A stretch of DNA of 64,000 nucleotides from the NCBI GenBank assembly GCA_963720675.1, contig CAVRGH010000007.1:64605-128604 (forward strand), in the 5' to 3' direction. The DNA is from an uncultured Acidimicrobiia bacterium. Lineage in GTDB: Bacteria; Actinomycetota; Acidimicrobiia; IMCC26256; PALSA-555. Shown here piece after piece: positions 7,171 to 28,861 of the stretch (within the stretch, counting starts at the first letter, position 1; every line of letters starts with the position of its first letter). The notes beneath the pieces are model-generated. The model did not search any database. It had not been told where the DNA came from and worked only from the letters and a program-made list of their open reading frames with translations. A program made the translations under genes and the position numbers.

Positions 7171-7680
7171 ATGCAGGATCACTCGTACTCGGTCGACATC
7201 TCCGCACCCCCCGAGGAGGTGTGGGAGCTCTTCTGGTACCGCGGGCCCGACCGCCCGCAACCGCGTGACGGTGTGACGCGCATCGACATCCTCCACCCCG
7301 GCGACGAGGTGGGTGAAGGGCTCGTCCGCCACTGCTCCTTCAAGGTCCCGAAGGTGCTCGGCTCGGGTGGCGTCGCGCAGTCCTGGGAGTGGCTCACGCA
7401 GGTGCAGCGTCCGGTCTCCTGGCGCTACGACGCGATCGGGAAGCCGCTCTGGTCGCGCGCGACGGGCTTCACCCGGCTCGAGGACCTCGGCGACGGGCGG
7501 ACCCGCATCCACTTTCGTGAGACGTACGAGACGTTCAACCCGTGGATGCGGCGACTCGGCCTCGAACGGTGGGTGCACCGGAAGATCTCGCGCGACAACG
7601 ACGAGATGATCGCCGCGCTCGAGGGCGGGCTCGGCTGGCACCGCAAGCGCCGCGCCCGCGAAGCCGAAGCGAAGTCCTAG
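7171..7680 (+). CDS. SRPBCC (START/polyketide-cyclase-like) family protein
   Basis: The track ORF is 7135..7680. ATG 7171 is preceded by TAGCCT plus 7 nt, a leaderless-type layout. The sequence YSVDISAPPEEVWELFW... is typical of an SRPBCC N terminus. Confidence 0.7.
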   Translation: MQDHSYSVDISAPPEEVWELFWYRGPDRPQPRDGVTRIDILHPGDEVGEGLVRHCSFKVPKVLGSGGVAQSWEWLTQVQRPVSWRYDAIGKPLWSRATGFTRLEDLGDGRTRIHFRETYETFNPWMRRLGLERWVHRKISRDNDEMIAALEGGLGWHRKRRAREAEAKS

Positions 7681-7690
7681 CTCCCCGGGA

Positions 7691-7737
7691 TTCTTGGCAC
7701 GTTGACACGCGCCATGCGCGGATCAGCGTGCCAAGAA
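7691..7737. repeat. structured intergenic palindromic element, copy A (second copy at 48092-48158)
   Basis: Sequence is TTCTTGGCACG-ttgaCACGCGCcatGCGCGgatcag-CGTGCCAAGAA: a perfect 11-bp outer stem and a 5-bp inner stem. It sits between convergent stops at 7680 (+) and 7764 (-). Confidence 0.65.
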
Positions 7738-7763
7738 CGGAAGAGGGGTCGACGGCGGGCGGG

Positions 7764-9164: not shown

Positions 9165-9225
9165 GGGTGGTCCCTCCCCGCCGGAACCGTGCCGGACGGC
9201 CCGGGCTCCCGCACCACGATACGGC

Positions 9226-10035
9226 GTGGCCGTGCGTGTGGGAAGGAACACGCAGCAACGCGCAATACAGTCTGGCCATGACCGACGCCCCGCCCCCTCC
9301 CCGCCCCCTCCGCCACCCCCTCCGCCGGAAGGAGCACCGGGACCGGGCTGGAACGCCCTCCCGAGCTCGGCGGCCGAGCGCGTGCGCGTTGCCTACCAGG
9401 CACGGGCGCAGAGCGATTACGTGTTCACCGGGCCGGGGCTGAACATCGTTCTGACGATCATCACGTGCGGGATCTTCGGCCTCTATCTCTTCTACCAGCT
9501 CATGCGCCGGGACAAAGATCACCTGCTCCGCCGGTACCAGCTGCTCGACGCCGCCAACGCGTTCGCGTGGGAACGCGCGAACGCGGCCGGCCTCGCGACC
9601 GAGCTCACGCCGAGCTTCGAGCGCAGCGCGGTCCACCTCGAGACCATGCGCCGGCAGACGACCGAGTTCCGAGACCCGGCGATCTGGGTGCTCATCGCGC
9701 TGGTCGCCGGTGCGCTCGCGCAGATCGTCGGGTTCGTCCTCATCGACCAGGATCTCGATACGCACGACCGCGCGGAAGGCGCGCTGGAGACGGAGCTCGC
9801 CACGATCTACGCGCGACTCGGGCAACCCCTCCCGACGCCCGACCCTTCACGAGTCAAGGGCAAGCAGAACTACGCAGCGCGCATCGTGGTGACCATCGTG
9901 ACGTGCGGCGTGTACCAGCTCTGGTGGCTCTACGACATGCAGGTGGAGGGCAACCGTCACCTCGAGCAGAACTGGCCCTGGGACGACGCGCTCGCTGCTG
10001 GAGTCCAATCGATCGCCGCCACCGACGCGGCCTGA
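9226..10035 (+). CDS. DUF4234-like membrane protein with Pro-rich N terminus (start uncertain)
   Basis: Two TCG[IV][FY]xL[YW]W/F-type hydrophobic motifs are present (TCGIFGLYLFYQL, TCGVYQLWWLYDM). GTG 9226 is the first in-frame start. A leaderless-looking ATG at 9278 (TACAGT + 6 nt) lies in another frame ahead of a C-rich tract, so a 1-nt frame change there is possible. Confidence 0.65.
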   Translation: MAVRVGRNTQQRAIQSGHDRRPAPSPPPPPPPPPEGAPGPGWNALPSSAAERVRVAYQARAQSDYVFTGPGLNIVLTIITCGIFGLYLFYQLMRRDKDHLLRRYQLLDAANAFAWERANAAGLATELTPSFERSAVHLETMRRQTTEFRDPAIWVLIALVAGALAQIVGFVLIDQDLDTHDRAEGALETELATIYARLGQPLPTPDPSRVKGKQNYAARIVVTIVTCGVYQLWWLYDMQVEGNRHLEQNWPWDDALAAGVQSIAATDAA

Positions 10036-10058
10036 GCAGCAGCGGACGGTCGAGCGGT

Positions 10059-10307
10059 CTACTCCGCGAACAGCTCGTCGGGGTCCTCGTCCGAGTCCGC
10101 GCTCTCGAACTCCTCGAGGTCGGTGACGATCCGGTCGACATCGGCCTGCGCACGCGCGATACGAGTCCGACACGTCGTCAGGAGCTCACTCGCTCGCCGG
10201 ACGCGCTCCGCCAGCACATCGACGTCGAGGTCGTCGCCCTCGAGCTCCTCGAGGATCCCCTCCAGCTCCGCCATCGCGTCTGCGTACCCCAGCTCGTCCT
10301 CGCTCAT
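10059..10307 (-). CDS. xseB: exodeoxyribonuclease VII small subunit
   Basis: ATG 10307 is inside track ORF 10059..10592. The 82-aa acidic helical protein (MSEDELGYADAMAELEGILEELE...) lies directly downstream of xseA. Confidence 0.9.
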   Translation of the reverse strand: MSEDELGYADAMAELEGILEELEGDDLDVDVLAERVRRASELLTTCRTRIARAQADVDRIVTDLEEFESADSDEDPDELFAE

Positions 10308-10323
10308 CAGTGCTCCTCGGTGC

Positions 10324-11628
10324 TCACGTGCGCTCCTCGACGCGACTGTGCACGTCGCCACCCGCAGTCTCGGTGACGAGGGCATCGCCGACCCCCACGT
10401 CGTCGGCCCGGCGTAGGACGCGGCCTTCCGCCGTCCGCGTGATCGTGTAGCCACGCTCGAGCACCCGACGAGGGTCGAGGGCGCGGAGCCGGGCCTCAGC
10501 AGTGTCGAGGCGGGTCGTGGCACCTCGGAGACCCCGCGTCGCGGCGGCGTTGAGCGTGCGCTCGTGCGTGGCCGAGAGCCCACGCGCTTCACGCGCCCGC
10601 CGGCGACCTGCGTCGATGGCTCGGCGACGGTGCCCCTCCAGTGCGCGGCGCTCGCGCTCCAGCGCGATCGGCACCCCGCGGGAAAGGCGCGACGACGACC
10701 GGGCGAGCTCGCGGCCCGCGATCGTGCAAGCCGAGCGGGCGCGCAAGGACACCCGGTGCGAGATCCGCGCCAGCCGCTCGCAGTAGGCGTCGACTGCGTC
10801 GACCAACATCGCGGCGGCTGCCGTCGGGGTCTTCAGCGAGGTGTGTGCCACCTCGTCAGCCACCGTTCGGTCGACCTCGTGACCGATGCCCGTCACGACC
10901 GGCACCCCGGACTCGGCGATGACCCGGGCCACCGCTTCGCTGTCGAACGGCGCGAGGTCGCTCCGGGACCCGCCACCGCGCGCCAGGACGATGACGTCGA
11001 AGTCGAGACGAGACAGCGTCCGAAGGCCGTAGACGATGCGGCGGAACGCGCCCTGACCCTGCACGCGCACGTCGACGTGCGCGACGCGGAACGCATGGGG
11101 ACTCGCCTCGAGCTCCTGCACGAAGTCGTGGTACGCCGCACTCCCACCGCTCGTGACGAGGCCGACCCGCAACGGGACGAGCGCGAGCTCGAGCTCGGCC
11201 TGCCGACGGAGCAGCCCCTCGGCGGTGAGCAGCTGGAGCACACGCGTCCGCTCCGCAGCGAGCTTCCCGACGGTGAACAGCGGGTCGATGCCGTTCATGA
11301 TCAGCTGCAGCCGACCGGCAGGCGGCCAGAAGTCGACCCGCGCGCGGATCCGCACCTCGACGCCGTCACCGAGCGTGGCACCCGCGTCGCGCAGTGTTCG
11401 GTTGACCCCGGCGCGGTCCTGGCGGAACAACGCGACCGACAGCTTCGCCTTGACGTGGTCGCGCCGAGGTTCCTTCTCGACCAGATCGAAGTACGCGTGC
11501 CCTGCGCCCGTGACCCGGTACTGCGCGACCTCACCACGCACCCAGACCTGCCCGGGGAAGCCCTCGGACAGCGCCTCCGCAATGGCCTGGTTGAGCTCCC
11601 CGACGCCGAACGTCGGCGCCTCGGTCAA
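10324..11628 (-). CDS. xseA: exodeoxyribonuclease VII large subunit
   Basis: This is the C-terminal 434 codons of the 799-aa track ORF. TTG 11628 overlaps the stop of the upstream gene (cTTGA). The OB-fold N terminus (VWVRGEVAQY...YFDL) and the GGGS..DL / TGIGHE.D catalytic-core blocks are present. Confidence 0.9.
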   Translation of the reverse strand: MTEAPTFGVGELNQAIAEALSEGFPGQVWVRGEVAQYRVTGAGHAYFDLVEKEPRRDHVKAKLSVALFRQDRAGVNRTLRDAGATLGDGVEVRIRARVDFWPPAGRLQLIMNGIDPLFTVGKLAAERTRVLQLLTAEGLLRRQAELELALVPLRVGLVTSGGSAAYHDFVQELEASPHAFRVAHVDVRVQGQGAFRRIVYGLRTLSRLDFDVIVLARGGGSRSDLAPFDSEAVARVIAESGVPVVTGIGHEVDRTVADEVAHTSLKTPTAAAAMLVDAVDAYCERLARISHRVSLRARSACTIAGRELARSSSRLSRGVPIALERERRALEGHRRRAIDAGRRRAREARGLSATHERTLNAAATRGLRGATTRLDTAEARLRALDPRRVLERGYTITRTAEGRVLRRADDVGVGDALVTETAGGDVHSRVEERT

Positions 11629-12078
11629 GAACCGCAGTCCTTGAGCTTCAGCTTGTCGGCCGCGAGGATCGTGTCGGTGAAGGGGTTGCCCTCGAAACCC
11701 CGGTTCGGGTCGGCCACGAACGCGTCGAGCTCGCGCTGCGCGGTCTTGAGCATCTTCTTGACCTTGGCGCGCAGCTTCTTCGGCTCCTTGAGCGCATCGA
11801 TGGAGTCGATCCGCTGCTGGACGATCGGCTCCAGGGCCGTGACGTAGGCGGCCATCTGCTCGATGCTCGGTTGGCCATCGGGCGCGACGCCGGCGAACGC
11901 GGTGTCGCTGGCCTCGGCGAGCGAGCGTGTCGCTCTGCGCGCAGATGTTGTTGGTGGTCTTGCGCCACTGCTGCTCCGACAGGGGCTTGCGACCGACGGT
12001 GGCGCCCGCCACCGCGCCGAACGCGAGGCCGCCGGCGAGGGCCACCGCGGTGACCAGTGTGAGCGTGCGTCGCGCCAT
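11625..12078 (-). pseudogene. small secreted protein (~150 aa), apparent +1 frame change near 11916
   Basis: ATG 12078 has GGAGG 8 nt upstream and is followed by a signal peptide (MARRTLTLVTAVALAGGLAFGAVAG). Coding-looking sequence continues in the next frame (EASDTAFAGV...MAAYVTALEPIVQQRID...KLKDCGS, track ORF 11625..11855). Confidence 0.6.
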
Positions 12079-12146
12079 CGTTCGCCTCCGAGTCGTCAGC
12101 GTTCCGGAGCGCAAGTATCGCACCGGGGGACGCGGAGGCCGAACCC

Positions 12147-12723
12147 TCAGGTGACCCGCGCCAACCCGAGCTCGTACGCCGAGCGCGGTGAGCTCGGCCC
12201 GCCGCCGCCTTCCGGTCTTCTCCCGGATCCGGTCGAGGTGCGACTGCGCAGTTCGGATCGAGATGCCGAGCTGTTCGCCGATCTCCCGGTCGGTGCTCCC
12301 CGACGCGACGCACTCGAGCACCTCACGCTCGCGCGGGCTCAAGAGGTCGGGCGGGAAGGCGCTCTCGGGCAGGTAGGTACCACCGCCCGCGACCAGGGCG
12401 ATGACCTCGATGATCAGCTCCCGGTCGCTCGCGCCCGACATGAAGGAGGAGACGCCGGCGTCGACCGCGCCCTCGCGGTACTGCGGCCGCGCGAAGCAGA
12501 TCACCCGAGGGCACGCGTTCACGATCGCTCGCAGGTCACCCATGGAGATGTCCTCCCCGAACCCGACGATCGCGACGTCGGGCGGCGGCCCGTCGAGGAC
12601 GATCGACGGGTGGTTCCCGACCGCGGCGACCTCGAGGCCCGGCGCCTGGAGCACGACCTGCTCGAACCCCAGCCGCGCGACGTCGTTGCTGACGACGATC
12701 GCGACCCGGATGACGTCACTCAT
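12147..12723 (-). pseudogene. LuxR/NarL-type regulator with degenerate (pseudo) receiver domain; apparent +1 frame change near 12180
   Basis: It begins at ATG 12723. The HTH block is LSPREREVLECVASGSTDREIGEQLGISIRTAQSHLDRIREK. The canonical end AELTAL-AYELGLARVT-TGA (stop 12147-12149) is reached only by skipping one base. Without the skip, the frame runs 799 codons through two further genes. Confidence 0.7.
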
Positions 12724-12910
12724 GCTGGGTCACCAGCCCGAGCTCGTGCGCGAGTGCCGTGAGCTCGACGCGGCACCGCGATCCAGCCGGTCGGAGCAGC
12801 AGCAGCGTGGAGGAGCGGGACCGGGACACGACGGGGACGGTAGGAGGACCCTGGGACACGCGAAGCCCGCGGCGCAGACCCGCTCCGCCCCCGCCCTCGT
12901 CGCCCCGCAC
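12716..12910 (-). other. possible small LuxR-type HTH ORF or remnant of a LuxR 3' end
   Basis: This 64-aa track ORF ends RVELTALAHELGLVTQHE, resembling the C terminus of the downstream regulator. Its stop overlaps that gene's ATG (ATGAGTGA). The rest is Arg/Gly-rich and poorly coding-like. Confidence 0.3.
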
Positions 12911-13021
12911 GTGGTCCCCCTGAGCCCCCGCCAGGGCTGACGGCAGTGTGATGCTTCCGTGGCAGCGGAGAAAGAGGTACTTCGACCCACAGGGTTGGAC
13001 CGCCCTCGCTCGCCGCTCGCA

Positions 13022-13996
13022 TCACGGAACCCGGGGCAGCACCTGTTCGCAGTAGAGGCGGAGGCTCTCCCACGCCGCATCGATCGGCATCCCCCCGACG
13101 AGCGGGTGGAGGTTGACCGCGCCGGTGGCGGTGGCCTGGGCGACGCACTCGTCGGGGCTGAGCACCTGGTAGATGCCCTCGGCGCGCAGCGAGGCGACGT
13201 CGGTCGCGTAGCTGTGCACCGCCGATTTGATGTCGGGCGTCTGCCACGAGTGGTAGGTGGACGCCTCGTGGAAGAAGTGCTCGCCGAGCTCGGCCCACGC
13301 CTTCTCGGGGTCCTCGGCGACGTGGACCATGGTCGTGCTGGCCCCGGGCATCATGCAGAAGCCCTGCGTGCCCTGCTCCTTGCATTGCTCGTAGTAGTAG
13401 GCCTCGAGCTCGGGGAGGTGCGCAGCCGGGAACATCGGGAGGCCGAACCGCGCGGCGCGCCGCGCCGCGACCTTGCTCGTCCCGCCGATGAGCAGCATCG
13501 GGTGGGGCTGGGTGAGGGGCTTCGGCGTGACCCGCACCGTGGTGCCGCGGTACTCGAACGGCTCACCGGTCCACGCCTTCAGGATCGTGTCGATGCACTC
13601 GTCCATCAGCGCGCCGCGGCCGGCCCAGTCCTTGCCGTGCGCCGCGTACTCGGACGGGCGGTAGCCGAGCCCGGCGATGGTCGTCATGCGGCCACCGCTG
13701 GCGAGGTCGAGGACGGCGAGGTCCTCGGCGACTCGCAGCGGGTCGTGCAGCGGGACCAGCAGCGCCGAGAGCGAGATGCCGATGCTCTTCGTCGCACCGA
13801 ACACCAAGCCGGCCATCACGAAGGGGGACGGGCTCCAGCCGTTGTCGGCACCGTGGTGCTCCTCGAGCGTGACCATCGCGAAGCCCTGCTCGTCGGCGTA
13901 GCGCGCCATCTCGACGAAGGCCTGGTACCGAGCGGCCATCTCGACCGGCTCGAGACCGGGCTGCACGCAGTTGAACCGCGCGATCGACATCACCAT
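13022..13996 (-). CDS. LLM-class (luciferase-like) flavin-dependent oxidoreductase
   Basis: This is an intact 324-aa ORF with typical LLM blocks (FAMVTLEEHH, GGRMTTIAGLGY, MLLIGGTS). Confidence 0.8.
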   Translation of the reverse strand: MVMSIARFNCVQPGLEPVEMAARYQAFVEMARYADEQGFAMVTLEEHHGADNGWSPSPFVMAGLVFGATKSIGISLSALLVPLHDPLRVAEDLAVLDLASGGRMTTIAGLGYRPSEYAAHGKDWAGRGALMDECIDTILKAWTGEPFEYRGTTVRVTPKPLTQPHPMLLIGGTSKVAARRAARFGLPMFPAAHLPELEAYYYEQCKEQGTQGFCMMPGASTTMVHVAEDPEKAWAELGEHFFHEASTYHSWQTPDIKSAVHSYATDVASLRAEGIYQVLSPDECVAQATATGAVNLHPLVGGMPIDAAWESLRLYCEQVLPRVP

Positions 13997-14043
13997 GTCA
14001 GCGTCCTCGTGATCCTTCGTCGGTCCGGACGGCGAGCCGGAGC

Positions 14044-15492
14044 TCAGCCGGGCGGCAGGATGATCGTCTGCAGCTCCGTGTACGGCGCGATGCCCTCAGG
14101 CCCGAGCTCGCGTCCGATGCCCGACTGCTTGAAGCCACCGAACGGTGCGTTGAAGTCGAGGATCATCGACGAGTTGATCGCGACGACGCCCGTGCGCACC
14201 TGGGACGCGACCGCCGCGCCGTGTTCGGCGTCGGTGGTCCACACGGAACCGCAGAGGCCGTAGTCGGAGTCGTTCGCGATCTTGATCGCCTGAGCTTCGT
14301 CGTCGTAGGGGATCACCGACAGCACCGGTCCGAAGATCTCCTCCTGGGCGATCTTCATGTCGTTGGTGACGTCGGCGAACACCGTCGGCTCGACGTACCA
14401 CCCCTTCTCGAGGTGCTCGGGGAGCCCGCCGCCCACGACGGCTCGGGCCCCGGCCGACTTCCCGGCCTCCAGGTAGCCCGCGACGCGGTCGCGCTGGCGC
14501 TCCGCGACGAGCGGCCCGACCTGGACCTCGTCGTCCATCGGGTCGCCGACCTTCAGCGCGCCCACCGCGGCACCGAGCGCCTCGGTGACCTCGGCGTAGC
14601 GCTTCTTGCTCACGAGGATCCGGCTCTGCGCGCCACAGACCTGACCGTTGTTCATCAGGCCCGACATCACGAGGTTGCCCATCGTCGCCTCGTCGAGATC
14701 CGCGTCGTCGAGCACGATCGCGGCGGACTTGCCGCCGAGCTCGAGTGTGACGCGCTTCAGCAGCCCGCCACACACCTCGCCGATGTGCCGGCCGACCGCG
14801 CTCGACCCGGTGAAGCTCACCTTGTCGATGCCGGGGTGCCGCAGGATGTGCTCACCGGTCTCGCGACCGGCGGCGACGATGTTGATGACCCCCGGAGGGA
14901 GGTCGGCCTCGATGATCGCGTCCGCGAGCAGGTAGGAGTCGAGCGGCGTCTCCGGCGCGGGCTTCAGCACGATCGGGCAGCCGGCCGCCATCGCAGGCCC
15001 GAGCTTCAGGGCGCTGATGAAGAGCGGCACGTTCCACGGGATGATCCCCGCGGCGACTCCGACGGGCGCGCGCAGGACGCGGACCGGAGATCCGAGCGCA
15101 CCGGTGCGGTCGTCAACCCAGTCGTAGCCGGACGCGAGCCCGGCGTACATGTCGAGGACCATCGTGGCCGAGAACACCTGGCCCATGACCGACCACGACT
15201 TGGGCGACCCGTTCTCGTTCGAGATGACGTCCGCGATGTCCTGCGCGCGCGACTGCAACGCACCCGACAGGCGCTTGATGCCCTCGGCGCGCTCCTCGGG
15301 CGTCATGCGGGGCCACGGACCCTCGTCGAACGCGTGACGGGCTGCGGCGATCGCCTTGTCGAGATCTGCGGGCGACGCGTCGGGGACGGTGCCGATGACC
15401 TCTTCGGTGTGGGGCGAGATGACCTCGATGACGCCCTTGCCCTCGGGTGCCACCCACTCGCCGCCGATGAACAGCCTGTCGCGCACGTCCAC
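14044..15492 (-). CDS. NAD(P)-dependent aldehyde dehydrogenase
   Basis: This is an intact 482-aa ORF with ALDH signatures (FTGSSAVG, ELGGKSA, QVCGAQSR catalytic Cys, EEIFGPV). Confidence 0.9.
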   Translation of the reverse strand: MDVRDRLFIGGEWVAPEGKGVIEVISPHTEEVIGTVPDASPADLDKAIAAARHAFDEGPWPRMTPEERAEGIKRLSGALQSRAQDIADVISNENGSPKSWSVMGQVFSATMVLDMYAGLASGYDWVDDRTGALGSPVRVLRAPVGVAAGIIPWNVPLFISALKLGPAMAAGCPIVLKPAPETPLDSYLLADAIIEADLPPGVINIVAAGRETGEHILRHPGIDKVSFTGSSAVGRHIGEVCGGLLKRVTLELGGKSAAIVLDDADLDEATMGNLVMSGLMNNGQVCGAQSRILVSKKRYAEVTEALGAAVGALKVGDPMDDEVQVGPLVAERQRDRVAGYLEAGKSAGARAVVGGGLPEHLEKGWYVEPTVFADVTNDMKIAQEEIFGPVLSVIPYDDEAQAIKIANDSDYGLCGSVWTTDAEHGAAVASQVRTGVVAINSSMILDFNAPFGGFKQSGIGRELGPEGIAPYTELQTIILPPG

Positions 15493-17872: not shown

Positions 17873-17968
17873 TCGACGCGCAGGCGCCACCCGCGCGTTC
17901 CTGACACCGGCGTCACCTCCGTGCCAGGATGCGCCCGCACCGGGACCGACGGACGAGCAGGGGGAAAC

Positions 17969-20387
17969 GTGGCGGGAGCGCTGGACGGGGTTCGCATCCT
18001 CGACCTCACCTGGGGATCGGCGGGACCGTTGGGTGTGCTGCTGCTCGCCGAGCAGGGCGCCGACGTCATCAAGGTCGAGCCGCCCGCGGGTGACCCGTTC
18101 CGCGCTGCGCAGGACGAGGGCTACGCGGGGTACAAGGTGTGGACCCGGTCGCGCCGCTCCGTGCGCTGCAACCTGCAGTCCGACGCCGGACGCGCCGCGT
18201 TCCTCGAGCTCGCGAAGACCGCCGACGTGGTCGTCGAGTCGTACCGCCCCGGGGTTCTGGACCGGCTCGGCATCGGGTGGGACGTGCTCCACGCCACGAA
18301 CCCGCGGCTCGTCCTCGTGTCCGTGCCGGGCTACCCCGCCGGCCACCGCAATGCGCACCGGCCCGGGTACGACGCGCTGGTCCAGGCCGCGTCGGGCGCG
18401 CAGTGGGAGCAGCCCGGGTGGCGCCCCGGCCCGATCTTCCTGTCGATGCCGTTGCCCAGCGTCGGAGCGATCTTCCTCGTCGCCAGCGGTGCGTGCGCAG
18501 GCCTGCTCGCCCGGGAGGAGACCGGACGCGGCCAGCACGTGCAGACCTCTCTCTTGCAGGGCGTCTGGCTGTACTCGACACAGATCTGGCAGTGGGCCGA
18601 GCACGCGGACGCTGCGGTGTACGGCCTGATGGCCAAGAGCCACCCGCCCGGGGTGCACCAGGGGATGATCTTCGAGTGCGCGAACCGTGTGTTCGTCCAC
18701 GTCTCGGTGATGAGCGGGAAGACCCCCACCAAGACGCTCGACGAGATCCTCGGCACCCAGCCGCCGCCCGCCGAGGACCTCGAGGGCCTGCTCCCCCTCC
18801 AGCAGCAGAACCTGATGAACGAGGCCCGGCGCGAGGCGTTCCGCCGCTGGGACTGCGACGAGCTGGTCGCCGAGCTGATCGCGTGCAACCAGGTCGCCGA
18901 GAAGATCGTGGAACCCGAAGACCAGTTCGCCCACCCGCAGCTGCAGGCGAATGGGATGGTCGCGACCGTCGAGGACCCGGACCTCGGCGCCACCACCCAG
19001 ATCGGTGTGCCCATCCACCTCCTGGGGACGCCCGGTGCGATCCAGGGCGGCCAGCCCCGCGTCGGCGAGCACGACGAAGAGGTGTGGGGCGAGGTCGGGA
19101 TCTCGGGCGACGCGCTCGCCGCGGTGACCGGCCCGGTGGGCGAGTCGACCACGACACGTCCCGCGACCACTGCACCGCGGCTCGACCTGCCGGATGCGGG
19201 GCCCGACGCCACACCGCCGCGATTCGCGCTCGGGAAGTACCGGCTCATCGACTTCGGCCAGTACCTCGCCGGGCCGTTCGGTCCGATGATCCTCGGCGAC
19301 CTCGGCATGGACGTCGTCAAGGTCGAGCCCGTCACGGGCGACGGCATGCGCATGGCTGCGACCCCGTTCTTCGGGTGTCGAGCGCGGCAAGCGCGACCTC
19401 GCGCTCGACCTGAAGTCGGCCGAGGGGCTCGAGATCGCGCGCAAGCTCGTGGGCACCGCCGACGTCGTCCACCACAACATGACGAAGGGGACGGCGAGTC
19501 GCCTGCAGCTCGACTACGCCGCGTGCAAGGCCGTGCGCGACGACATCATCTACTGCAACACGTACACGTACGGGCTGGAAGGACCGCTCTCCCACTTCGG
19601 TGGGCTCGACCCGCTGTACCAGGCCAGCTCGGGCATCGAGCACGAGCTCGGCGCGACGAGCCACGGGCACGATCCTCTCTATTACCGCTACGGGATGTGC
19701 GACGCGGCCAACGCACTGCTGTCGATCGTCGGCGTGCTCGAGGCGCTCGTGCACCGCGAGCGCACCGGTGAAGGCCAGGAGCTGTGGACCAGCCTGATGG
19801 ACGGCGGTGCGGTGTTCGCGTCCGACACGCTGCTGCTCCCGGACGGGACCGCGGCGATGCGACCGAAGCTCGACGCCGGCCAGCACGGGTTCGGGTGGGC
19901 GTACCGGGTCTACGAGACCGACGACAACTGGGTGTGCGTCGCCGCGCTCACGGCCGAGCAACGCGACGCGTTCCTGGCCGCGGTGGGCGTCGACCCGCAG
20001 GTGGAGGCGGACCCGACACCGGCCATCGAGGCAGCCATGCGCACCAAGAACGCAGTCATGTGGTCGCACACGCTCGACGACGCGGGGGTACCGAACGAGA
20101 TCACGCTCGACATCCAGAACGGCATGATCGGGCTGTTCGACTCGGACCTCGTCGGCCTGGGGATGGTGGCGGAGTACGAGCACCCCACGATGGGGCGCAT
20201 GCGCCAGTTCGGCGAGCTCGTCCACTTCTCGGAGACGCCGGGCGTCATCCGCGGCCCGGCACCTCGGGTCGGGGAACATTCCCGCGAGATCCTCGAGGAT
20301 CTCGGCTTCTCGGGCAGGGAGCAGGACGCGCTCAAGGACCGGGGCGTCGTGACCTGGCCGGGCGAGGACGACACCGCCCCCTGGTAG
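17969..20387 (+). pseudogene. tandem double CaiB/BaiF-type (family III) CoA-transferase; apparent +1 frame change near 19377
   Basis: GTG 17969 follows a GGGGGA RBS. The first module starts LDGVRILDLTWGSAGPLG. The second starts LGKYRLIDFGQYLAGPFGP and continues only in the next frame (ERGKRDLALDLK..., track ORF 19449..20387). No stop separates the modules. Confidence 0.7.
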
Positions 20388-20454
20388 CCCGGCGCCGCGC
20401 CGAAGCGTCGGGATCAGGCAGGTTCGGCGACCTCCCACTACCGTCGCGCGCTCC

Positions 20455-23400
20455 ATGCGCCTCGACCGTCCCCTCGTCCGCCTGCCGCTGCGCGTCGACG
20501 CCGCCCGGCTCGCGGCCGAGCTCTCGGCGATCGACGAGCGAGCGTGGCGCGACCATCCCGAGGGCGCCCCGGGCAACACCGCGCTGCCGCTCGTCGCGGC
20601 CGGGGGCGACCCGGACGACGACGCGACCAAGGGCCCGATGGCGCCGACGCCGCACCTCGCGAGCCTGCCGTACACGCGTCAGGTGCTCGCGGGGCTGCAC
20701 ACGACGATCGGGCGCACCCGCTTCATGCGGATCGCGACCGAGACCGAGCTCCACCGCCACGTCGACACCAACTACTACTGGTGGCATCACCTGCGCGTGC
20801 ACGCGCCGATCGTCACGACACCCGACGTCGTGTTCGATGTCGACGGCGAGACGACGCACATGGCGACCGACGAGGTCTGGGTGTTCGACACCTGGCGCCC
20901 CCACCGGGTCGACAACCCCGCGTCCGCGCCCCGGGTGCACCTCGTGGTCGACACCGTGGGCAGCGCCGAGCTGTGGGACCTCATCGACCGACCCGACCGC
21001 GAACCGCGCACCATCGAGTTCGCGCCCGACGTCACCCCGCTGCTGCCCATCGAGACCGTGAACCACCCCGTGGTGATGGCGGCGGCCGAGATCGACGACA
21101 CGCTCGAGGCACTCCTCGCCGAGATCGCGACGCTCGACCCCGAGGGCACCGAACGGGTACGGGCCGCGCTCACCCCGTTCCGCCACGGCTGGCACGACCT
21201 CTCGGCCCGGTTCGGTGTCGCGGCGCCCGGCTGGACCCACTTCCGAGAGCTGCTGCGACGCGGCGACGCCGCCATGGCCGAAGCCGCCGGCGACCTCGTG
21301 CTGCCGAACAACATCTCGTTCGTCCAGGCCGGCGCGTCAGCTGGTGTTCCTCGTCGCGCTCAACCCCGACCTCGCCGTGGTCGGGGCACCGGCCACCGAG
21401 CCTGCGCCGAGCGCCGCCGGGCCGGCTGCGACCCCGACCGCGCCGGCTCGTCCGGCACGGCCCGATCCCCTCCGCGCCCGCCTCGCCGGCCCACCCCGCA
21501 TCTCCGATCCGGTGTTCGTCGTCTCCTCGCCGCGTTCGGGATCGACCTTCCTGTTCGAGACGCTGGCGCGCACGCCCGAGCTCTACTCCATCGGCGGCGA
21601 GAGCCACACCATCTTCGAGAACATCGCCGCGCTCGCTCCCGCCGCCCACGAGTGGGCGTCCAACCGCCTCGACGCGACCGACGCGACCGAGGGGGTCGTC
21701 GCCCACCTCAAGGACGCGTTCGCCACGCGCCTGCGCGACCGCGAGGGCCGGCGCCCGCCCGGGGGCCCGACCCGCCTCCTCGAGAAGACCCCCAAGAACG
21801 CGTTGCGCGTCCCGTTCCTCGCCGCGGCCTTCCCCGACGCCCGGTTCGTCTACCTCTACCGGGACCCACGCGAGACGATCAGCAGCATGCTCGACGCCTG
21901 GCGCTCGGGCCGCTTCGTCACGTATCCCGATCTCCCGGGCTGGGGTGGCAGCCCCTGGTCCCTCCTCCTCACGCCCGGGTGGCGCGAGCTCGACGGGCTG
22001 CCGCTGGCCGAGGTCGTCGCCGACCAGTGGGCCACGACGACGAACGTGCTGCTCGACGACCTCGAGTGCGCTCGAGCCCGACCGGTGGTGCGTGGCGAGC
22101 TATGACCGACTCGTCGCCGATCCGCGCGCCGAGATCGGGCAGCTGTGCGCGTTCCTCGAGCTCGCCTGGGACGACGACCTCGCCGATCCCCTCCCGAACT
22201 CCCGGCACACACTCGACTCGCCGCACCCCGACAAGTGGCAGCGCAACGCCGACGAGCTCGCGCCGGTCCTCCCCCAGATCGCCGCCACCGCCGAACGCGC
22301 GCGCCAGGTCTTCGCCGATCCACCACGGGTCGCGGCGGTCAAGATCGCGCCGTCGGCCAACCGCGCTCCCAAGAACACGCCGCCGGTGATCCAGGAACCG
22401 GTGGTCCAGGAGCCGGCGATGCACGTGGAGGACGCGAACGCCGGTCTGTCGACCGCGCCGAGCGTCGAAGAGCTGTTCCACTCGAACCACACCGGTTCGT
22501 TCGCCACACTGCTGCGCACGCTCGGGGCGTCGCTGCTCATCACGACCTACCAGGCCGGCCGCGTCATCCTGGTGCGCCACACGGAGGACAGCCTCAACAC
22601 GCACTTCCGCTCCCTCGCCACCCCCATGGGCGTCGCCTATGACGGACGCCGCCTCGCGATCGGCACCAAGTCCGAGATCGCGGTGTTCCAGAACCAGCCG
22701 GAGCTCGGCCGGCGACTCGATCCACCCGGTCGGCACGACGGATGCTTCGTGATCCGGAACCGCCACGCGACCGGCGACATCAGGGTCCACGACCTCGCGT
22801 GGGCCGAGGACGGCCTCTGGATCGTGAACACGCGCTTCTCGTGCCTCGCGACACTCGACGGCGAGCACTCCTTCGTCCCACGCTGGCGACCGCCGTTCGT
22901 CCGCGCGCTCGCACCCGAGGACCGCTGCCACCTGAACGGGCTGGCGGTCGTCGACGGCGTGCCGCGGTTCGCGTCGGTGCTCGGCATCAGCGACGAACCG
23001 AACGGGTGGCGCGAGAACAAGGCGACCGGCGGCGCGATCTTCGACGTCCCGTCGAGCGAGGTGGTGGCCGTCGGACTCTCGATGCCGCACTCACCCCGAT
23101 GGCACGACGACAAGCTCTGGGTGCTGGAGTCCGGGCTGGGCGTGCTCAGCACCGTCGACATCGACACCGGCGAGATCCACCAGGTGGCGCAGGTGCCCGG
23201 CTTCGCCCGCGGGCTCGCCTTCGCGGGCCAGTACGCGCTGATCGGCCTCTCGAAGGTGCGGGAGCACGTGTTCGACGGGCTGCCGCTCACCCGGAACCGC
23301 ACCGAGGATCTCCGTTGCGGCGTGTGGGTCGTCGACACGACCAACGGGGAGACCGTCGGCTACCTCTCCTTCGAAGGGCTCGTCCAGGAGATCTTCGAGG

Positions 23401-23519
23401 TCACACTCCTCCCGAACATGCGCTACCCCGAGCTGGTCGAGCCCGGGGCGGCCCTCGCCGACTCCGCCTACGTGCTCCCGCCCGCCGCGCTGGCCGAGGT
23501 GCCCGCCGCCGGACGCTGA
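20455..23519 (+). pseudogene. three-domain protein (Asp/Asn beta-hydroxylase-like cupin, sulfotransferase, TIGR03032/DUF4915-like); two apparent +1 frame changes (near 21338 and 22067)
   Basis: Frame 1 carries ELHRHVDTNYYWWHHLRVHAPI (AspH/LpxO-type His motif). Frame 2 carries PVFVVSSPRSGSTFLFE plus RLLEKTPKN (sulfotransferase PAPS motifs). Frame 0 carries WCVASYDRLVADP... followed by FHSNHTGSFATLL...HSPRWHDDKLWVLESG, which resembles the TIGR03032 family. No stop codons lie at either junction. Confidence 0.65.
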
Positions 23520-23557
23520 GCGCCCGCCCGGACCGCCCCCCGACCCGGCGGGCCCGC

Positions 23558-23563
23558 TAGGGT
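23558..23563 (+). promoter_or_regulatory. putative -10 box TAGGGT, 54 nt before the beta-helix-1 ATG
   Basis: This is a TAnnnT hexamer in the context gcTAGGGTtcccGGATCG. Very similar boxes lie at the same distance before three other FTG-tail genes. Confidence 0.3.
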
Positions 23564-23616
23564 TCCCGGATCGACCCGGAGCGGAGCCGGGCCACAACAC
23601 CGGGAGCGCCACCCCG

Positions 23617-25160
23617 ATGAGCTCATTCGACGACGTCGCCACGCCTGCAGGACCCCTGCCGAACCGCGCCGCCCGCCGGGCCGCAGGGCGCCGGGGCCGC
23701 AAGCTGGGCGCACTGGGCTCGGGCGCCGTGCTGGCCACCGGCGCGACCGCCGCGGTGCTCGGCCTCACCGCCGGGCCCGCCGTGGGCGCCGCAACGCTCG
23801 TCGTCGACACCACCGACGACGGTCCGGCGACGCCGGCGGACTGCACGACCCCGGTCGCCGGCTCGTGCTCGCTGCGCGACGCGATCGCCGCCGCCGCGGA
23901 CGGCGACACCGTCGACGCGACGGGTATCAGCGGCATCGATCTCGCTGACCGACGACCAGCTCTACACCTGCAGCAACATCACGATCACCGGTCCGGGCGC
24001 GGCGAACCTCACCGTCGACGCCCATCGATGACTCGCGCGTCCTCTACTCCGACTTCGGCGGCAACGGCACGACCACGATCACCGGCATCACCTTCACGAA
24101 CGGCTACGCGACGGGCGACGGCGGCGCGATGCTCTTCTACTGCGACGGCGGCAGCGGCTCGCTCATCCTGAACGACGTCGCCATGACGAACAGCTACGCC
24201 GAGCTCTACGGCGGCGGCCTCGCGGTGATGGCCTGCGAGGACACGTCGATCTCGGGTTCCACCTTCTCCGGCAACCACTCCGGCTCCGGCGAGGGTGGCG
24301 GCATCGTCTTCTACGACTCCAACGACCTGACGGTCACCACCACGTCGGTCGTCGACAACCACGCCGAGCAGGACGACGGCGGTGGGATCGCCTTCTACGG
24401 CTCCAACAACATGACCGTCCGCAACAGCACGATCGCGAACAACACCGCGGGCGAGTTCGGCGGCGGCCTCTACGTCAACGCCTACGGCGACGTCACTATC
24501 GATCAGTCCACGATCTCAGGGAACCAGGCAACCGACAGCGGCGGCGGGATCGGCGTGAACTACGCCGACGGTGACGTGAACATCGTCCAGACCACGATCT
24601 CGGGCAACACCGCGGGCGACCTCGGCGACGGCCTCTACTTCTACCAAAACCTGGAGAACCAGGGCGCGCAGTCCGCCGAGAAGGCCGACCAGAAGCGAAC
24701 CCGCGTCGGCCACAACAAGGAGGGTGCGCCCCAGGAGGCACCCAAGGCCCACGGTCACGCCGGCGCGCAGGACGTCGGTGGCTCGGCCACGCTGACCGGC
24801 ACCATCGTCTCCGGCAACCCCGGGACGGACATCGACACGAACGGCACCCAGGCCGTCACGTCGGTCGCCTCCCTCATCGGCACGACCGGCGCGGGCATCA
24901 ACCTCACCGACGGCGGCGGCACGGTCACCTCGACCACACCGGGCCTCGGCGCCCTGGCGAACAACGGCGGCCCGACCCAGACCCTCGCGCTGCTCCCGGG
25001 CAGCCCGGCGCTCGACGCCGGCCCCGACCCCGTGCCCAGCTACCCCGACAACGGGTTCGACCAGCGCGGTCCCGGCTACCTCCGGGTCGTCAACGGTCGG
25101 GTCGACATCGGGGCGTACGAGGCGCAGGCCGTCGCGATCGTCCCCCGCTTCACCGGCTGA
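23617..25160 (+). pseudogene. secreted parallel beta-helix repeat protein 1 (CSLRDAI / choice-of-anchor-Q-like) ending VPRFTG; two apparent +1 frame changes (near 23950 and 24029)
   Basis: The signal-like N terminus contains RR (NRAARRAAGRRGRKLGALGSGAVLATGATAAVLGL). It carries a CSLRDAI motif, many N-[ST]-x-x-x-N-x-A-x-x-GGG[IL] repeats and the block ALANNGGPTQTLALLPGSPALDAG. Shifts were placed by alignment to the downstream paralogue (ITITGPGAANLTVDAH). Confidence 0.75.
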
Positions 25161-25238: not shown

Positions 25239-25292
25239 CTGCGGATCGTCCCTGGTGCAGAACCGGGGCAGTCCAGCGGGAGCATTACTGCG

Positions 25293-26834
25293 ATGACCGC
25301 GAGCGACTCCTCGGCCCGCCCGAAGGCCCGACCCCCAACCGTGCCGCCCGGCGCGCGGCCGGACACCGCGGCCGCAAGCTCGGAGCGCTGGGCTCGGGCG
25401 CGGTGCTCGCCAGCAGCGCCACCGCCGCGGTGCTCGCGCTCGGCGCGGGTCCGGCCGTCGGCGCGACCACGCTCGTCGTCGACTCGAACGGCGACGGCGG
25501 TGCCACGCCGGCGAACTGCACGACGCCGGTCGCCGGTGCCTGCACGATCCGCGACGCGCTCGCCGCGGCTGCCGACGGCGACACGATCACCTTCGCGCCC
25601 AGCGTCACCGGCGACATCCAGCTCAACGGCGGCGAGCTCGAGATCGACAGTGCGGTCACCATCACCGGACCGGGCGCCGGCGCGCTGGCGATCCACGCCG
25701 ACACCGGGTCACGAGTCTTCAACGAGAACAACGACTTCTCCTCCGGTGACCTGACGATCAGCGGCCTCACCATCACCGACGGTGACAACGGCAACGGTGG
25801 CGGCGGGATGGAGATCGACTGCTACGGAGACCCCGTCAACGTCGTCCTCGACAGCGTCGTGATCACGGGCAACTCGACCAGCAGCAACGGCGGCGGTTTC
25901 TACATGTACGCCTGCGGCGATCTCACCATCCGCAACTCGACCGTCTCGTACAACTACGCGGAGCGTGGCGGCGGCGGCGTGCGCGTGGAGAACTCGCAGA
26001 ACCTCACGATCGAGAATTCGACGTTCGCTCACAACACCAGCGCCTCGGACGGCGGTGCGCTGTACCTCACCGGCGCCGAAGGTGTCGTGACGATCACGAA
26101 CTCGACCTTCAACAACAACGAGGCGGACGACGGTGCGGGGCTCGAGATCTACGAGAACCAGGACGCCCAGAGCATCACGATCGCGAACTCCACGGTCACC
26201 GGGAACGTCGGGGGCGGTGACGGTGGGGGGCTCTACCTCTACGGGAGCGACGCAGCGATCCTCAGCTCGACGATCGTGGGCAACTCGTCCGACGACAACA
26301 CCGGCGGGGTCCTCGTCACCAGCGCGGACGTGACCGTCACCGCTTCGCTCCTCGGTGGCAACACCGACGTCGGCGGGAGCGGCGCCGCCGCGACCGACAT
26401 CGGCACCGGCATCCGCGAAATGTCGCTCGGAGCGAGCAAGCACACCGGACGGGGCGGTGGCGGGGGCAAGGACAGCGGCCCGGTCGCCAAGGCCGGCGGC
26501 GTCGGCGCCCAAGCCGCCGGCTCCGTCACGATCACGTCCAATGTCATCAACGGCATCGTCGACCCGAACCTCACCACCACCGACGGCGGCGGGAACCACC
26601 TCGGCGTCGCTCCGGGCGTCGGCGCACTCGCGAACAACGGCGGCGCCGACGCAGACCCTGGCGCTCCTGCCCGGCTCGGGCGCGATCGACGCCGCCGGTG
26701 CAGCCGTGCCGAGCTTCCCGGGGAACGACTTCGACCAACGCGGGGCCGGGTACGCCCGCCTCGTCAACGGCGCACTCGACGCCGGTGCGTTCGAGGTCCA
26801 GGCGGTCGCACTGGTTCCCCGCTTCACCGGCTGA
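25293..26834 (+). pseudogene. secreted parallel beta-helix repeat protein 2 ending VPRFTG; apparent -1 change near 25323 and +1 change near 26645
   Basis: ATG 25293 gives MTASDSSARP. The next frame gives GPTPNRAARRAAGHRGRKLGALGSGAVLASSATAAVLAL, collinear with paralogue 1. A long GGG repeat body follows. The tail PTQTLALLPGSGAIDAAG...VQAVALVPRFTG lies in track ORF 26355..26834. Confidence 0.75.
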
Positions 26835-26848
26835 CGCGCGCACACGCC

Positions 26849-27096
26849 ATGGCGTCCGACCCGCGACCCGGACGGCAAGATCGTCCAGCTCGCGGTGTTC
26901 GAGGGCTTCATCGAGGCCGAAGCCGCAGTCGCACAGCTCGACGGCGGCAGGCATCAAGGCCATGCGCGGCGCCGACGACGGGAACTCGCTCCCGAACCTC
27001 GCGTCGTCCGGTGGGTTCCCGGTGCTGGTGTTCGAGGACGACCTCGATGCCGCACGCGCGGTGCTCGCGACGGAAAGCTCAGAGCCCGCTGACTGA
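26849..27096 (+). pseudogene. DUF2007-like small protein; two apparent +1 frame changes (near 26866 and 26943)
   Basis: The segments MASDPR / PDGKIVQLAVFEGFIEAEAAVAQLD / AAGIKAMRGADDGNSLPNLASSGGFPVLVFEDDLDAARAVL read as one DUF2007-type fold only across three frames. The 3' end overlaps convergent ccdA by 18 nt. Confidence 0.5.
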
Positions 27097-27784
27097 GGGC
27101 GTGAACCGGGCGAGGTACGAGGTCAGGTGCCCGTACGTCCCGGTCGCGAGCAGCAGACCGAGGATCACGAGCAGCACGCCCGCAACCCGTTCGATGACGG
27201 GCCCCGCCCGGCGCAGCCAGGACGCGAAGCCCGGGGAACGACGCGAGCCCGAGCGCGGCGAGCAGGAACGGCACCCCGATCCCGAAGGCGTAGGCGAGCA
27301 GCAGCAGCGCCCCCCGCCACGCCTGGCCCTGCTGCGCGGCGACGGTGAGCGCCGCGGCGAGGAGCGGCCCGACGCACGGGCTCCACGCCGCGCCGAACGC
27401 GACGCCGACGACGAACGGGCGCGCCCGCCCCCCGCCCGACGGCAGGCGCTGGACGAGGCGCCGCTCACGTGAGAACGGACCGCGCAGCACACCGAGCAGC
27501 GCGAGCCCCATCACGAAGATGATCACTCCGCCGACCCGCTCGATCACGTCCTGGACGTCGCGCAAGGACGAGCCGACGAACCCCGCGGCCGCGCCGAGCC
27601 CGGCGAACACGGCCGCGAAGCCGAGGATGAAGACGATCGTCGCGGGCACCGCGCGCGCCGGATCGCGCGCGTCCGCCGCCTCGCCGGCGATGATCCCCAG
27701 GTACGCGGGCAAGAGGGGCACGATGCACGGCGCCAGGAACGACGCCACGCCGGCACCGAACAGCGCCAGCAGCTCCGGGAGCAC
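27079..27784 (-). pseudogene. ccdA: cytochrome c biogenesis / thiol-disulfide transporter CcdA family; apparent +1 frame change near 27229
   Basis: It starts at GTG 27784. Both conserved Cys motifs are present (FLAPCIVPLLPAYL, AAWSPCVGPLL). The last two TM helices (FASWLRRAGPVIERVAGVLLVILGLLLATG...) are in the adjacent frame (track ORF 27079..27492). Confidence 0.75.
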
Positions 27785-27793
27785 GGGGAGGCC

Positions 27794-28861
27794 TCAGCCG
27801 CCGAAGGTGAACGCGAACGCCCGGAGATCGGGCGCGCGCGCGGTGAGCGTCACCACGTGCGTCTCGATCCCCGGCGCGAGCACCAGGCGGTACAGGTCGG
27901 ACGCGGTCACGCGCACGAAGGTGCTGCCGTCGGCGTCGACCATCGTGTCGGCCGTCCGGTACTCCGGCGGGAGTGGCGCACCGTCGAGCGCCACCGTCAC
28001 GTCGACGGCCGGAGCGCCCCGCTCGCCCGGTGCCAGCACGAGGTTGACCTCTCGGGCGAAGTACTGGAGATCGATCGCCGCATCCGCGGCGTCGGCTCGC
28101 ACGAATTGGGGCGCCGGAGTCCAGGCGCCGCGCAGCCGCGCCTCACCGCTGCCGCGCTCCTGGCCGAGATAGGTCTCGGGCGAGATCCGCTGGGTCGGCT
28201 CGGGCTCGGTCGCACCGGCGTCCCCAACGTGCGGGGCCGACTTCGGGACCTGGAGCAACGTGCGCACGACGGCCTCGATCTCCTCGTCCCCGCCTTCACC
28301 GATGTGCCCGTAGCGGAGCCGCCCCTTGCGATCCGCCATGAACGACTGCGGCCAGTACTGGGCGCCGAACGCGTTCCAGATGTCCATGTCGTCGTCGAGC
28401 GCGACCGGGTAGTCCACCTTCAGGCGCGCCACGGCGTCGCTGACGTTGCCGTGGTCCCGCTCGAAGTCGAACTCGGGCGAGTGCACGCCCACGACGACGA
28501 GCCCGTCGGGCGCGTACCGGTCGTACAGCGCGCGGAGGTGCGGGAGAGTTCGGACGCAGTTCACACACGAGTACGTCCAGAAGTCGTAGAGGACGACCTT
28601 GCCGCGCAGATCGCTCGGCCGGAGCGGCCCGGAGTTGAGCCAACCCTTGGCGTCGCCGAGATCGGGCGCCGCCGGGCCAACGGGCAGGTGGGCGACGTCG
28701 GCCTTGCCGGCCACCGTCTGCGGATCCGAGCCGCTCGCGAAGACGACGGCCGCGGTGGCGAACACGACCAGCGCGAGGGCGACGACCCCGTACTTCCAGC
28801 GCCCGGACCCCTGGTTCCCGGATGATCCGTTCCCGGCGGCGCGCTCCTCGGCGATCGTCAT
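27794..28861 (-). CDS. membrane-anchored thioredoxin-like protein (DipZ C-terminal-type)
   Basis: ATG 28861 lies inside track ORF 27794..29191. A TM anchor (WKYGVVALALVVFATAAVVFA) is followed by a redoxin fold with CxxC (FWTYSCVNCVRTLPHL) and an extra C-terminal beta-rich domain. It lies 9 nt upstream of ccdA. Confidence 0.8.
   Translation of the reverse strand: MTIAEERAAGNGSSGNQGSGRWKYGVVALALVVFATAAVVFASGSDPQTVAGKADVAHLPVGPAAPDLGDAKGWLNSGPLRPSDLRGKVVLYDFWTYSCVNCVRTLPHLRALYDRYAPDGLVVVGVHSPEFDFERDHGNVSDAVARLKVDYPVALDDDMDIWNAFGAQYWPQSFMADRKGRLRYGHIGEGGDEEIEAVVRTLLQVPKSAPHVGDAGATEPEPTQRISPETYLGQERGSGEARLRGAWTPAPQFVRADAADAAIDLQYFAREVNLVLAPGERGAPAVDVTVALDGAPLPPEYRTADTMVDADGSTFVRVTASDLYRLVLAPGIETHVVTLTARAPDLRAFAFTFGG

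Follow-up and report, generated by a model that had tools for sequence, protein, structure and literature searches.

What is encoded between positions 20455 and 23519 of a 64,000-nucleotide (nt) stretch of DNA from an uncultured Acidimicrobiia bacterium (assembly GCA_963720675.1, contig CAVRGH010000007.1, forward-strand positions 64,605 to 128,604; the whole stretch is called the window here), where a long reading unit passes through three frames in succession? An earlier note on this DNA proposed a fusion of a hydroxylase, a sulfotransferase and a TIGR03032-like domain, adjacent to a pair of beta-helix genes. The analysis described here identifies the unit as a further member of a catalogued, uncharacterised family, and the fusion is not new. 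The frames are broken by single extra bases that are very probably errors of consensus or assembly, and the core domain of the family is found in many phyla beside genes for secreted beta-helix proteins, which points to a functional link between the two. A rough probability of 0.7 is placed on this account as a whole – the identity of the gene, the artefactual nature of the breaks, and the coupling taken together.

Translation of the open reading frames (ORFs) shows that 20455–23519 on the plus strand is one 1020-codon gene spread over three frames. Segment A (20455–21330, codons 1–292, frame 1) starts at the ATG at 20455 and encodes a putative Fe(II)/2-oxoglutarate oxygenase module. Segment B (21332–22066, codons 293–537, frame 2) encodes a Pro/Ala-rich linker and then the N-terminal two thirds of a sulfotransferase. 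Segment C (22068–23519, codons 538–1020 and the stop codon at 23517–23519, frame 3) encodes the C-terminal third of the sulfotransferase, a linker and a propeller. There is no stop codon along the joined path. The window is about 71% G+C, and a frame plot of G+C at third codon positions (GC3) gives the same succession of frames (+1, +2, +0). In the deposited record, the frame-2 piece is a protein of 253 amino acids (aa; P0293) and the frame-3 piece is a protein of 475 aa (P0173).

When the extra bases 21331 and 22068 are removed, a 3063-nt ORF results. Its 1020-aa product matches three Pfam families – Asp_Arg_Hydrox (PF05118, 53.9 bits, E = 2.4e-14, cut-off 22.6 bits), Sulfotransfer_3 (PF13469, 103.2 bits, E = 3.2e-29, cut-off 27 bits), and DUF4915 (PF16261, 399.5 bits, E = 1.4e-119, cut-off 35 bits) – and the NCBIfam model TIGR03032 (386.2 bits, cut-off 251.5), as had been anticipated for the C-terminal domain. 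The sulfotransferase match covers residues 352–573, crossing the second junction. In an alignment, 17 intact homologues are collinear with the repaired protein across both junctions. The domain matches and the collinearity bear out the proposal of one polypeptide with three modules, and the peptides quoted in its favour were all found in the frames given for them.

The breaks were placed by comparison with an independent JGI contig of 5,620 bp (L096), which aligns with window positions 18566–24190 at 97.6% identity. This contig holds the three-domain gene intact, in an ORF equal in length to the repaired one, and the encoded protein (P0292, 1020 aa) is 98.0% identical in amino acid sequence to the repaired window protein. 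L096 was located because P0292 belongs to the 90%-identity cluster of P0173; the metagenome peptide patterns for the repaired protein missed it, and the best match in the metagenome scan with that protein was 70% identical.

At junction 1, an extra G at 21331 (equivalently 21332) shifts the reading from frame 1 to frame 2. It is the sole gap at this site in the blastn alignment, in which L096 reads CAGGCC-GCGCGC and the window reads CAGGCCGGCGCGT. A tblastn search with the orthologue from a syntenic locus, L082, places the frame change between residues 291 and 292. At junction 2, inside the sulfotransferase domain, the extra base that shifts the reading from frame 2 to frame 3 is T22067 or G22068 (CTCGGGT-CGCTCCAG in L096, CTCGAGTGCGCTCGAG in the window). 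Skipping one base per junction, as the earlier note suggested, does restore the ORF, though at junction 1 the base to be skipped lies six bases upstream of the 21337/8 that it had indicated. The peptide it gave for that junction, FVQAGAQLVF, does not hold either, as the 98%-identical intact orthologue reads FVQAARQLVF.

The two insertions are part of a wider pattern. The L096 alignment has exactly five gaps, each of them one extra window base within coding sequence: the two at the junctions, one at 19380 in a CoA-transferase gene upstream, and two at 23936 and 24026 in the first beta-helix gene downstream. Another JGI contig, L086, matches window positions 6858–14486 (7.6 kb) at 99.06% identity, and here there are two further extra window bases, 12181 and 11922, in genes that are intact in L086. 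The L096 alignment, taken with tblastn searches that used the intact orthologues of a syntenic Logan contig (L082/L083), shows that six genes in a row of seven are broken, with eight frame breaks in all from 19.4 to 27.2 kb; further downstream, the breaks lie at about 26644, 26944 and 27233. In the neighbouring genes, the coordinates of the Pfam and NCBIfam profiles split in accordance with the frame switches. The genes hit are those for the CoA-transferase, both beta-helix proteins, a DUF2007 protein, a DsbD/CcdA protein and a GerE-type regulator, and a 150-aa ORF, all of which are intact wherever they are covered by L096, L086 or the syntenic L082/L083 orthologues.

This density of lesions, with no stops, deletions or loss of the GC3 coding signal downstream of the breaks in the window gene and with near-identical contigs in which the genes are intact, makes errors of consensus or assembly the most likely source, and the two insertions in the three-domain gene most likely belong to the contig-wide pattern of 1-bp insertions rather than being a biological feature. 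An old pseudogene was ruled out by the absence of stops, the intact GC3 signal, and the pN/pS ratio, which after repair is equally low, at about 0.24, in the three segments before, between and after the breaks (0.25, 0.21 and 0.26). A very recent genuine pseudogene, in an organism that has lost the enzyme and several of its neighbours, is quite improbable. The frameshifts do stand in the deposited record and are reflected in its two protein calls, and none of the insertions is in a long homopolymer, unlike the classic signature of homopolymer errors. However, the same type of lesion recurs across the adjacent genes, including the DsbD/CcdA-type gene for cytochrome c biogenesis; selection as measured by pN/pS is equally strong on either side of the breaks; and eight independent inactivating insertions in 8 kb without other decay would be very unlikely biologically. 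Three separate or overlapping genes, or programmed +1 ribosomal frameshifting that yields alternative products, are barely conceivable. Every frame is open for hundreds of codons, and frames 2 and 3 contain start codons, but frame 1 meets its first stop at 22389 and from about 21336 onward its translation is Arg/Pro-rich off-frame sequence, junction 2 would cut the sulfotransferase domain in two, and unrelated neighbouring genes bear the same shifts. All orthologues examined, including the 98%-identical one, are single in-frame ORFs, with no conservation of a shift site and none of the genuine stops or separate genes that would have spoken for a different gene structure.

The five bases inserted relative to L096 (19380, 21331, 22068, 23936 and 24026) all lie inside 4-bp palindromes that contain CG – TCGA, CCGG (within GCCGGC), GCGC, and twice TCGA within ATCGAT. 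Over all eight insertions the fit is 5/8, with about 25% expected for random positions, and the statistics are weak. Such a bias could reflect a systematic base-calling error, perhaps linked to a methylation motif. For users who annotate or mine this assembly, many split genes are to be expected.

With the breaks set aside, the three-frame unit is mainly a matter of clean-up – an ordinary, catalogued gene damaged by the 1-bp insertions that pervade the contig. The family to which it belongs may matter more, as it is large, present in several phyla, strongly conserved and uncharacterised. A search of a 5.8-billion-protein collection with the repaired protein returned 1633 clusters at E <= 1e-10. 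Among the best 120 of these, nearly all are full-length (914–1096 aa, with one partial protein of 762 aa) and list Asp_Arg_Hydrox, Sulfotransfer_3 and DUF4915, with 52–82% identity and, in almost all, a coverage of 98–100%. Where they are named, the NCBI and JGI pipelines call them "TIGR03032 family protein". Three-domain TIGR03032 proteins have the modules in this same order and are about 960–1096 aa long; the window copy differs from them in its two 1-bp insertions. The three-domain architecture is thus encoded by a single ORF in L096 and more than 120 homologues, fused as the earlier note had it, and by a broken one in the deposited window.

A scan of a genome collection gave a best match to the repaired protein of 54% identity (69% for a fragment). 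The family was found in Acidimicrobiia, Microthrix and Ilumatobacteraceae; in Thermoanaerobaculia and other Acidobacteriota; in Chthoniobacteraceae and other Verrucomicrobiota; and in several Proteobacteria. There are variants of the architecture: sulfotransferase plus propeller in Solirubrobacterales, oxygenase plus propeller in Wenzhouxiangella, and the propeller alone in cyanobacteria, Planctomycetota and Gammaproteobacteria. Since the variants include a stand-alone propeller, DUF4915 is, on this comparison of sequences, the core module, and the oxygenase and sulfotransferase are accessory. The family had been described as uncharacterised, and no paper on it was found; literature searches gave nothing relevant on TIGR03032, DUF4915, PF16261, NF041518, TIGR04214 or choice-of-anchor Q.

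The N-terminal module looks like a competent, putative Fe(II)/2-oxoglutarate oxygenase of family PF05118. The Pfam match covers residues 65–167 (20647–20955), and an AlphaFold2 model of residues 1–292 (pLDDT 94.2) has a double-stranded beta-helix (DSBH) core followed by a C-terminal three-helix bundle. Residues H102, D104, H150 and R160 are invariant in 63 sequences, and the motifs that contain them align with HRD, PH and PRLHLVVD of the L-proline cis-4-hydroxylase 4p7w. H102, D104 and H150 are the predicted iron ligands, and R160 is presumably the arginine that binds 2-oxoglutarate, as in the P4H structure. The best sequence match of the module is 4p7w (profile E = 1.4e-13); there is also a weak match to TIGR04531, a model for "nonproteinogenic amino acid hydroxylase". 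In a Foldseek search, the top matches were 4p7x and 4p7w (L-proline cis-4-hydroxylase), 1e5r (proline 3-hydroxylase) and a nucleoside-antibiotic hydroxylase, while AspH came lower, at ranks 10–20. By sequence and by predicted fold, then, the module is closest to the hydroxylases of free L-proline, cis-4- and 3-, and not to AspH or LpxO. The matches to 4p7w, 4p7x and 1e5r cover almost all of the module (about 300 alignment columns), with a high root-mean-square deviation and an identity of only about 20%. Those enzymes, which work on free proline or pipecolate, are stand-alone, while the window module is joined to a sulfotransferase and a propeller.

The expected likeness to AspH therefore stands at the level of the family (PF05118) and of the DSBH fold, both of which human AspH and bacterial LpxO have in common with the window module, and fails at the level of nearest relatives. 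AspH has an unusual two-His site, while the window oxygenase has the canonical HxD...H triad. The window protein has no tetratricopeptide repeat (TPR) domain by Pfam, and no membrane or hydrophobic segment was seen in it by eye. The suggested likeness to LpxO, a lipid-modifying enzyme, was not upheld, given that the nearest relatives in sequence and fold are the proline hydroxylases and that no membrane anchor was seen in this inspection.

The central module, which begins near 21509 and ends at about 22175, is predicted to be a sulfotransferase dependent on 3'-phosphoadenosine-5'-phosphosulfate (PAPS). The assignment had been made from motifs, and the Sulfotransfer_3 match confirms it, covering profile positions 1–216 of 216 in the repaired protein. 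The 5'-phosphosulfate-binding (5'-PSB) loop SSPRSGSTF, the EKTPKN motif, and the 3'-phosphate-binding (3'-PB) motif YRDPRETISS vary little or not at all within the family, PRSGS[ST] and RDPRETxSS being fully invariant in its alignments. The best solved matches (E of about 1e-9 to 1e-11) are the CurM sulfotransferase and the tyrosylprotein sulfotransferases TPST1/2, which score nearly as well. The module aligns along its length with the CurM sulfotransferase 4gbm, including a C-terminal block past junction 2. This block, together with the PSB loop and the EK/DK-xP and 3'-PB motifs, lines up across the CurM/OLS sulfotransferases (4gbm, 4gox), TPST1/2 and the window. The CurM enzyme is a domain of a polyketide synthase (PKS) and acts on a beta-hydroxyacyl group bound to acyl carrier protein (ACP), while the TPSTs are Golgi enzymes that act on tyrosine. 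In sequence the module is nearest to these two, and not to Stf0: the Stf0 model (PF09037) scored 16.2 bits on the repaired protein, below its cut-off of 22, so that the module is not of this actinobacterial sulfolipid type.

The C-terminal module, a six-bladed propeller, occupies residues 681–993 (22497–23435), and the region matched by DUF4915 and TIGR03032 (residues 676–996) lies wholly in frame 3, so that this result is independent of the repair. The AlphaFold2 model of the propeller is all-beta (pLDDT 92.6, pTM 0.90). The motifs TYQ, NxHxR, TRFSCL, DRCHLNG, MPHSPR and VRE are invariant in alignments of 18 and of 63 sequences that include the window. Many His, Arg, Asp and Cys residues of the propeller are invariant, including four His, and these invariant polar residues suggest a catalytic or metal site. 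A profile search found no solved sequence relative. No N-terminal signal peptide was seen on inspection of the whole repaired protein, and the stand-alone DUF4915 ORFs have at most about 20–30 codons upstream of the domain; since there is so little room for one, the family is probably cytoplasmic.

The association of the gene with its neighbours is the part of these results worth following up. The three-domain gene ends 97 nt before the ATG at 23617, and thus lies, as the earlier note stated, directly upstream of a beta-helix pair. The first partner gene (23617–25160, plus strand) encodes a secreted protein of the right-handed beta-helix type, which has CSLRDAI as its N-cap motif and a choice-of-anchor Q domain at its C-terminus (Beta_helix 68 bits, NF041518 68.7 bits, with a cut-off of 25 for the latter). 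Its frame is broken by the extra bases 23936 and 24026, seen both in the L096 alignment and as a tblastn frame switch. The second (25271–26834, plus strand, start approximate) encodes a paralogue (Beta_helix 56.7 bits, NF041518 43.7 bits), with a tblastn frame switch at 26644–26646 and an NF041518 profile that starts at position 11, in the other frame. Both have a CS/TxRDAx N-cap motif and end in VPRFTG; the CSLREA N-terminal model gave only 18 bits, below its cut-off of 25. Six partners from other loci, ranging from Actinomycetota to Gammaproteobacteria, scored 58–78 bits with NF041518, so that all eight partners tested exceed the cut-off.

The pairing persists where the surroundings change. 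The closest syntenic relative, L082 (77% identity), has the same order with all genes intact: CoA-transferase, three-domain gene, beta-helix, DUF2007, DsbD/CcdA, and thioredoxin. L080 and L081 have unrelated upstream genes, yet a beta-helix gene directly downstream. By tblastn, about 50 of the 85 loci, which come from many phyla, have a beta-helix homologue no more than 3 kb from the DUF4915 gene; loci with stand-alone propellers are among them. A choice-of-anchor Q hidden Markov model (HMM), built from the partners and run against all ORFs in the flanks, found the domain within 3 kb of the DUF4915 gene in 41 of 83 loci, and in 31 of the 52 loci (about 60%) whose flanks extend 3 kb or more to either side. 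The density of the domain is 0.12–0.16 per kb in the first 2 kb and about 0.01 per kb beyond 4 kb. Conservation of the neighbourhood with CSLREA-like, choice-of-anchor Q beta-helix genes, raised in the earlier note as a check, is thus borne out, and homologues are both fused and co-located with such surface proteins. Single-linkage clustering of the flank ORFs revealed no further conserved neighbour family beside DUF4915 genes, though in DNA so rich in G+C this clustering is disturbed by shadow ORFs, both off-frame and antisense. A scan for promoters and terminators found nothing between the genes. The beta-helix partners are often tandem paralogues, up to seven per locus. On these grounds we lean towards a functional coupling of the DUF4915 propeller with the beta-helix choice-of-anchor Q protein, and the pairing suggests a dedicated cytoplasmic tailoring or maturation enzyme. 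As literature searches gave nothing on these families, the association may be unreported; it links the core propeller domain to one class of surface protein.

How such a pair might work can be sketched tentatively; the mechanism preferred here may well be wrong. The DUF4915 propeller would be the core of a two-gene cassette, with the secreted beta-helix choice-of-anchor Q surface protein as its other member. The enzyme would act in the cytoplasm on the adjacent beta-helix proteins prior to their export, and the propeller, as the core part specific to these partners, would recognise or process them. Hydroxylation by the oxygenase would, in this lineage, be accompanied by O-sulfation of a hydroxyl, perhaps the new one, by the sulfotransferase. 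The earlier note's speculation, hydroxylation and then sulfation of an envelope lipid, glycan or protein, is still a conjecture. If true, this would be a case of protein O-sulfation, which is rare in bacteria, and would give DUF4915 a function.

There are precedents for the genetic logic. HMW1C with HMW1, and Aah/TibC with AIDA-I/TibA, are cytoplasmic modifiers encoded beside beta-helix adhesins. As here, the gene for an enzyme without a signal peptide adjoins one or more genes for secreted beta-helix surface proteins, though the folds and the chemistry are unrelated, with glycosylation there and a presumed hydroxylation and sulfation here. A more speculative analogy is peptidylglycine alpha-amidating monooxygenase, which combines a hydroxylase (PHM) with a lyase in the form of a six-bladed propeller (PAL). 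The window protein likewise has a hydroxylase fused to a six-bladed propeller with several invariant His, and the partner ends in Gly in eight of nine actinobacterial cases. However, no sequence similarity or specific fold similarity of the window propeller to PAL was detected with Foldseek, PHM is copper-dependent while the window oxygenase would depend on Fe and 2-oxoglutarate, the non-actinobacterial partners end in PEP-CTERM-like or other tails, and the sulfotransferase would be left unexplained.

Several observations weigh against the coupling or against the proposed chemistry. About 40% of the well-flanked loci are without a choice-of-anchor Q neighbour. In fold searches the propeller matched only generic six-bladed propellers (YWTD, Kelch, NHL and TolB; TM of about 0.5, identity of 15% or less). 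Stand-alone DUF4915 genes keep the beta-helix neighbour without a hydroxylase or sulfotransferase, so the cassette must have some other core function than hydroxylation and sulfation. In the partner proteins, no modified residue or motif was identified. The nearest relatives of the oxygenase have free amino acids as substrates and the CurM sulfotransferase has acyl-ACP, a kinship no less in keeping with a small-molecule substrate than with a protein.

This last point leads to the main alternative for the function, in which the enzyme is intact in nature and tailors a small molecule, lipid or glycan, with the beta-helix partners binding or processing the product at the surface rather than serving as substrates; one possibility is a free amino acid that is hydroxylated and then sulfated. 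The kinship with the free-proline hydroxylases, which extends to the C-terminal helical domain, the weak TIGR04531 match and the sulfation of a beta-hydroxyacyl group by the best sulfotransferase match are all in keeping with this, as is the fact that beta-helix (PbH1/CASH) proteins are often carbohydrate-active. Nevertheless, no transporter, glycosyltransferase, nonribosomal peptide synthetase or PKS, or other pathway gene is conserved beside the cassette, the sole conserved neighbour being a surface protein, often in several tandem paralogues; and sulfotransferases of the TPST type, which modify proteins, score almost as high as CurM. A small-molecule substrate is rated about as probable as the preferred mechanism. 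To return to the modification of the beta-helix partners, a broader form of this proposal would be a hitherto unrecognised two-gene system across phyla, in which a cytoplasmic propeller enzyme matures or modifies secreted beta-helix proteins, with the oxygenase and sulfotransferase recruited in Acidimicrobiia and several other lineages. The cargo would be hydroxylated and O-sulfated, or the sulfate would be a leaving group for an elimination or cross-link catalysed by the propeller, and in actinobacteria a new tag, [RK]F[TA]G at the C-terminus, would mark the cargo. This broader form is rather unlikely to be right.

The C-termini of the partners vary by lineage: some are PEP-CTERM- or IPTL-like, some are Lys-rich, and some end in ...NGFD or ...NGFE. 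All nine actinobacterial partners end in [PVL][RK]F[TA][GA]-COOH, with Gly as the last residue in eight. The tails are VPRFTG, IPRFTG, LRFTG, PKFAG, VRFTG, PKFTG, PRFTG and VRFTA, found in the window at 25140–25160 and 26814–26834 and in L080, L081, L082, L087, L089, L090 and L069. The tail looks like an LPxTG cut short, with no hydrophobic anchor behind it, and may be a new tag for sorting or processing. In Solirubrobacterales, the partners have unusual Lys-rich, Cys-containing tails, such as KKKKKCKKKK.

At the other end, the partner N-termini (window 23617–23800 and about 25290–25480; L080 and L082) have a conserved leader rich in Arg, PNRAARRAAGxRGRKLGALGSGAVLA..., after which come a hydrophobic stretch rich in Gly and Ala and then AxA. 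Read as a twin-arginine translocation (Tat) signal, the Arg-rich NRAARRAAGRRGRK does have twin arginines but no match to the S/T-RRxFLK consensus. Three to seven tandem beta-helix/choice-of-anchor Q paralogues lie by a single DUF4915 gene in L026 (a metagenome-assembled genome of Solirubrobacterales), L041, L053, L078 and L011.

Beyond the beta-helix pair, the region 26868–28861 encodes a DUF2007 protein, a DsbD/CcdA-type protein and a thioredoxin-like protein (Redoxin plus Thioredoxin_10), the last two on the minus strand. Whether by chance or not, this reductant-export pair sits next to secreted beta-helix proteins that contain Cys. Upstream of the three-domain gene, 17921–20387 encodes one polypeptide with two CoA-transferase family III domains in tandem. 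The insertion at 19380 splits the second domain, with profile positions 84–366 in the second ORF; in L096 the CoA-transferase gene is a single one, of 606 aa or more, and runs off the contig end.

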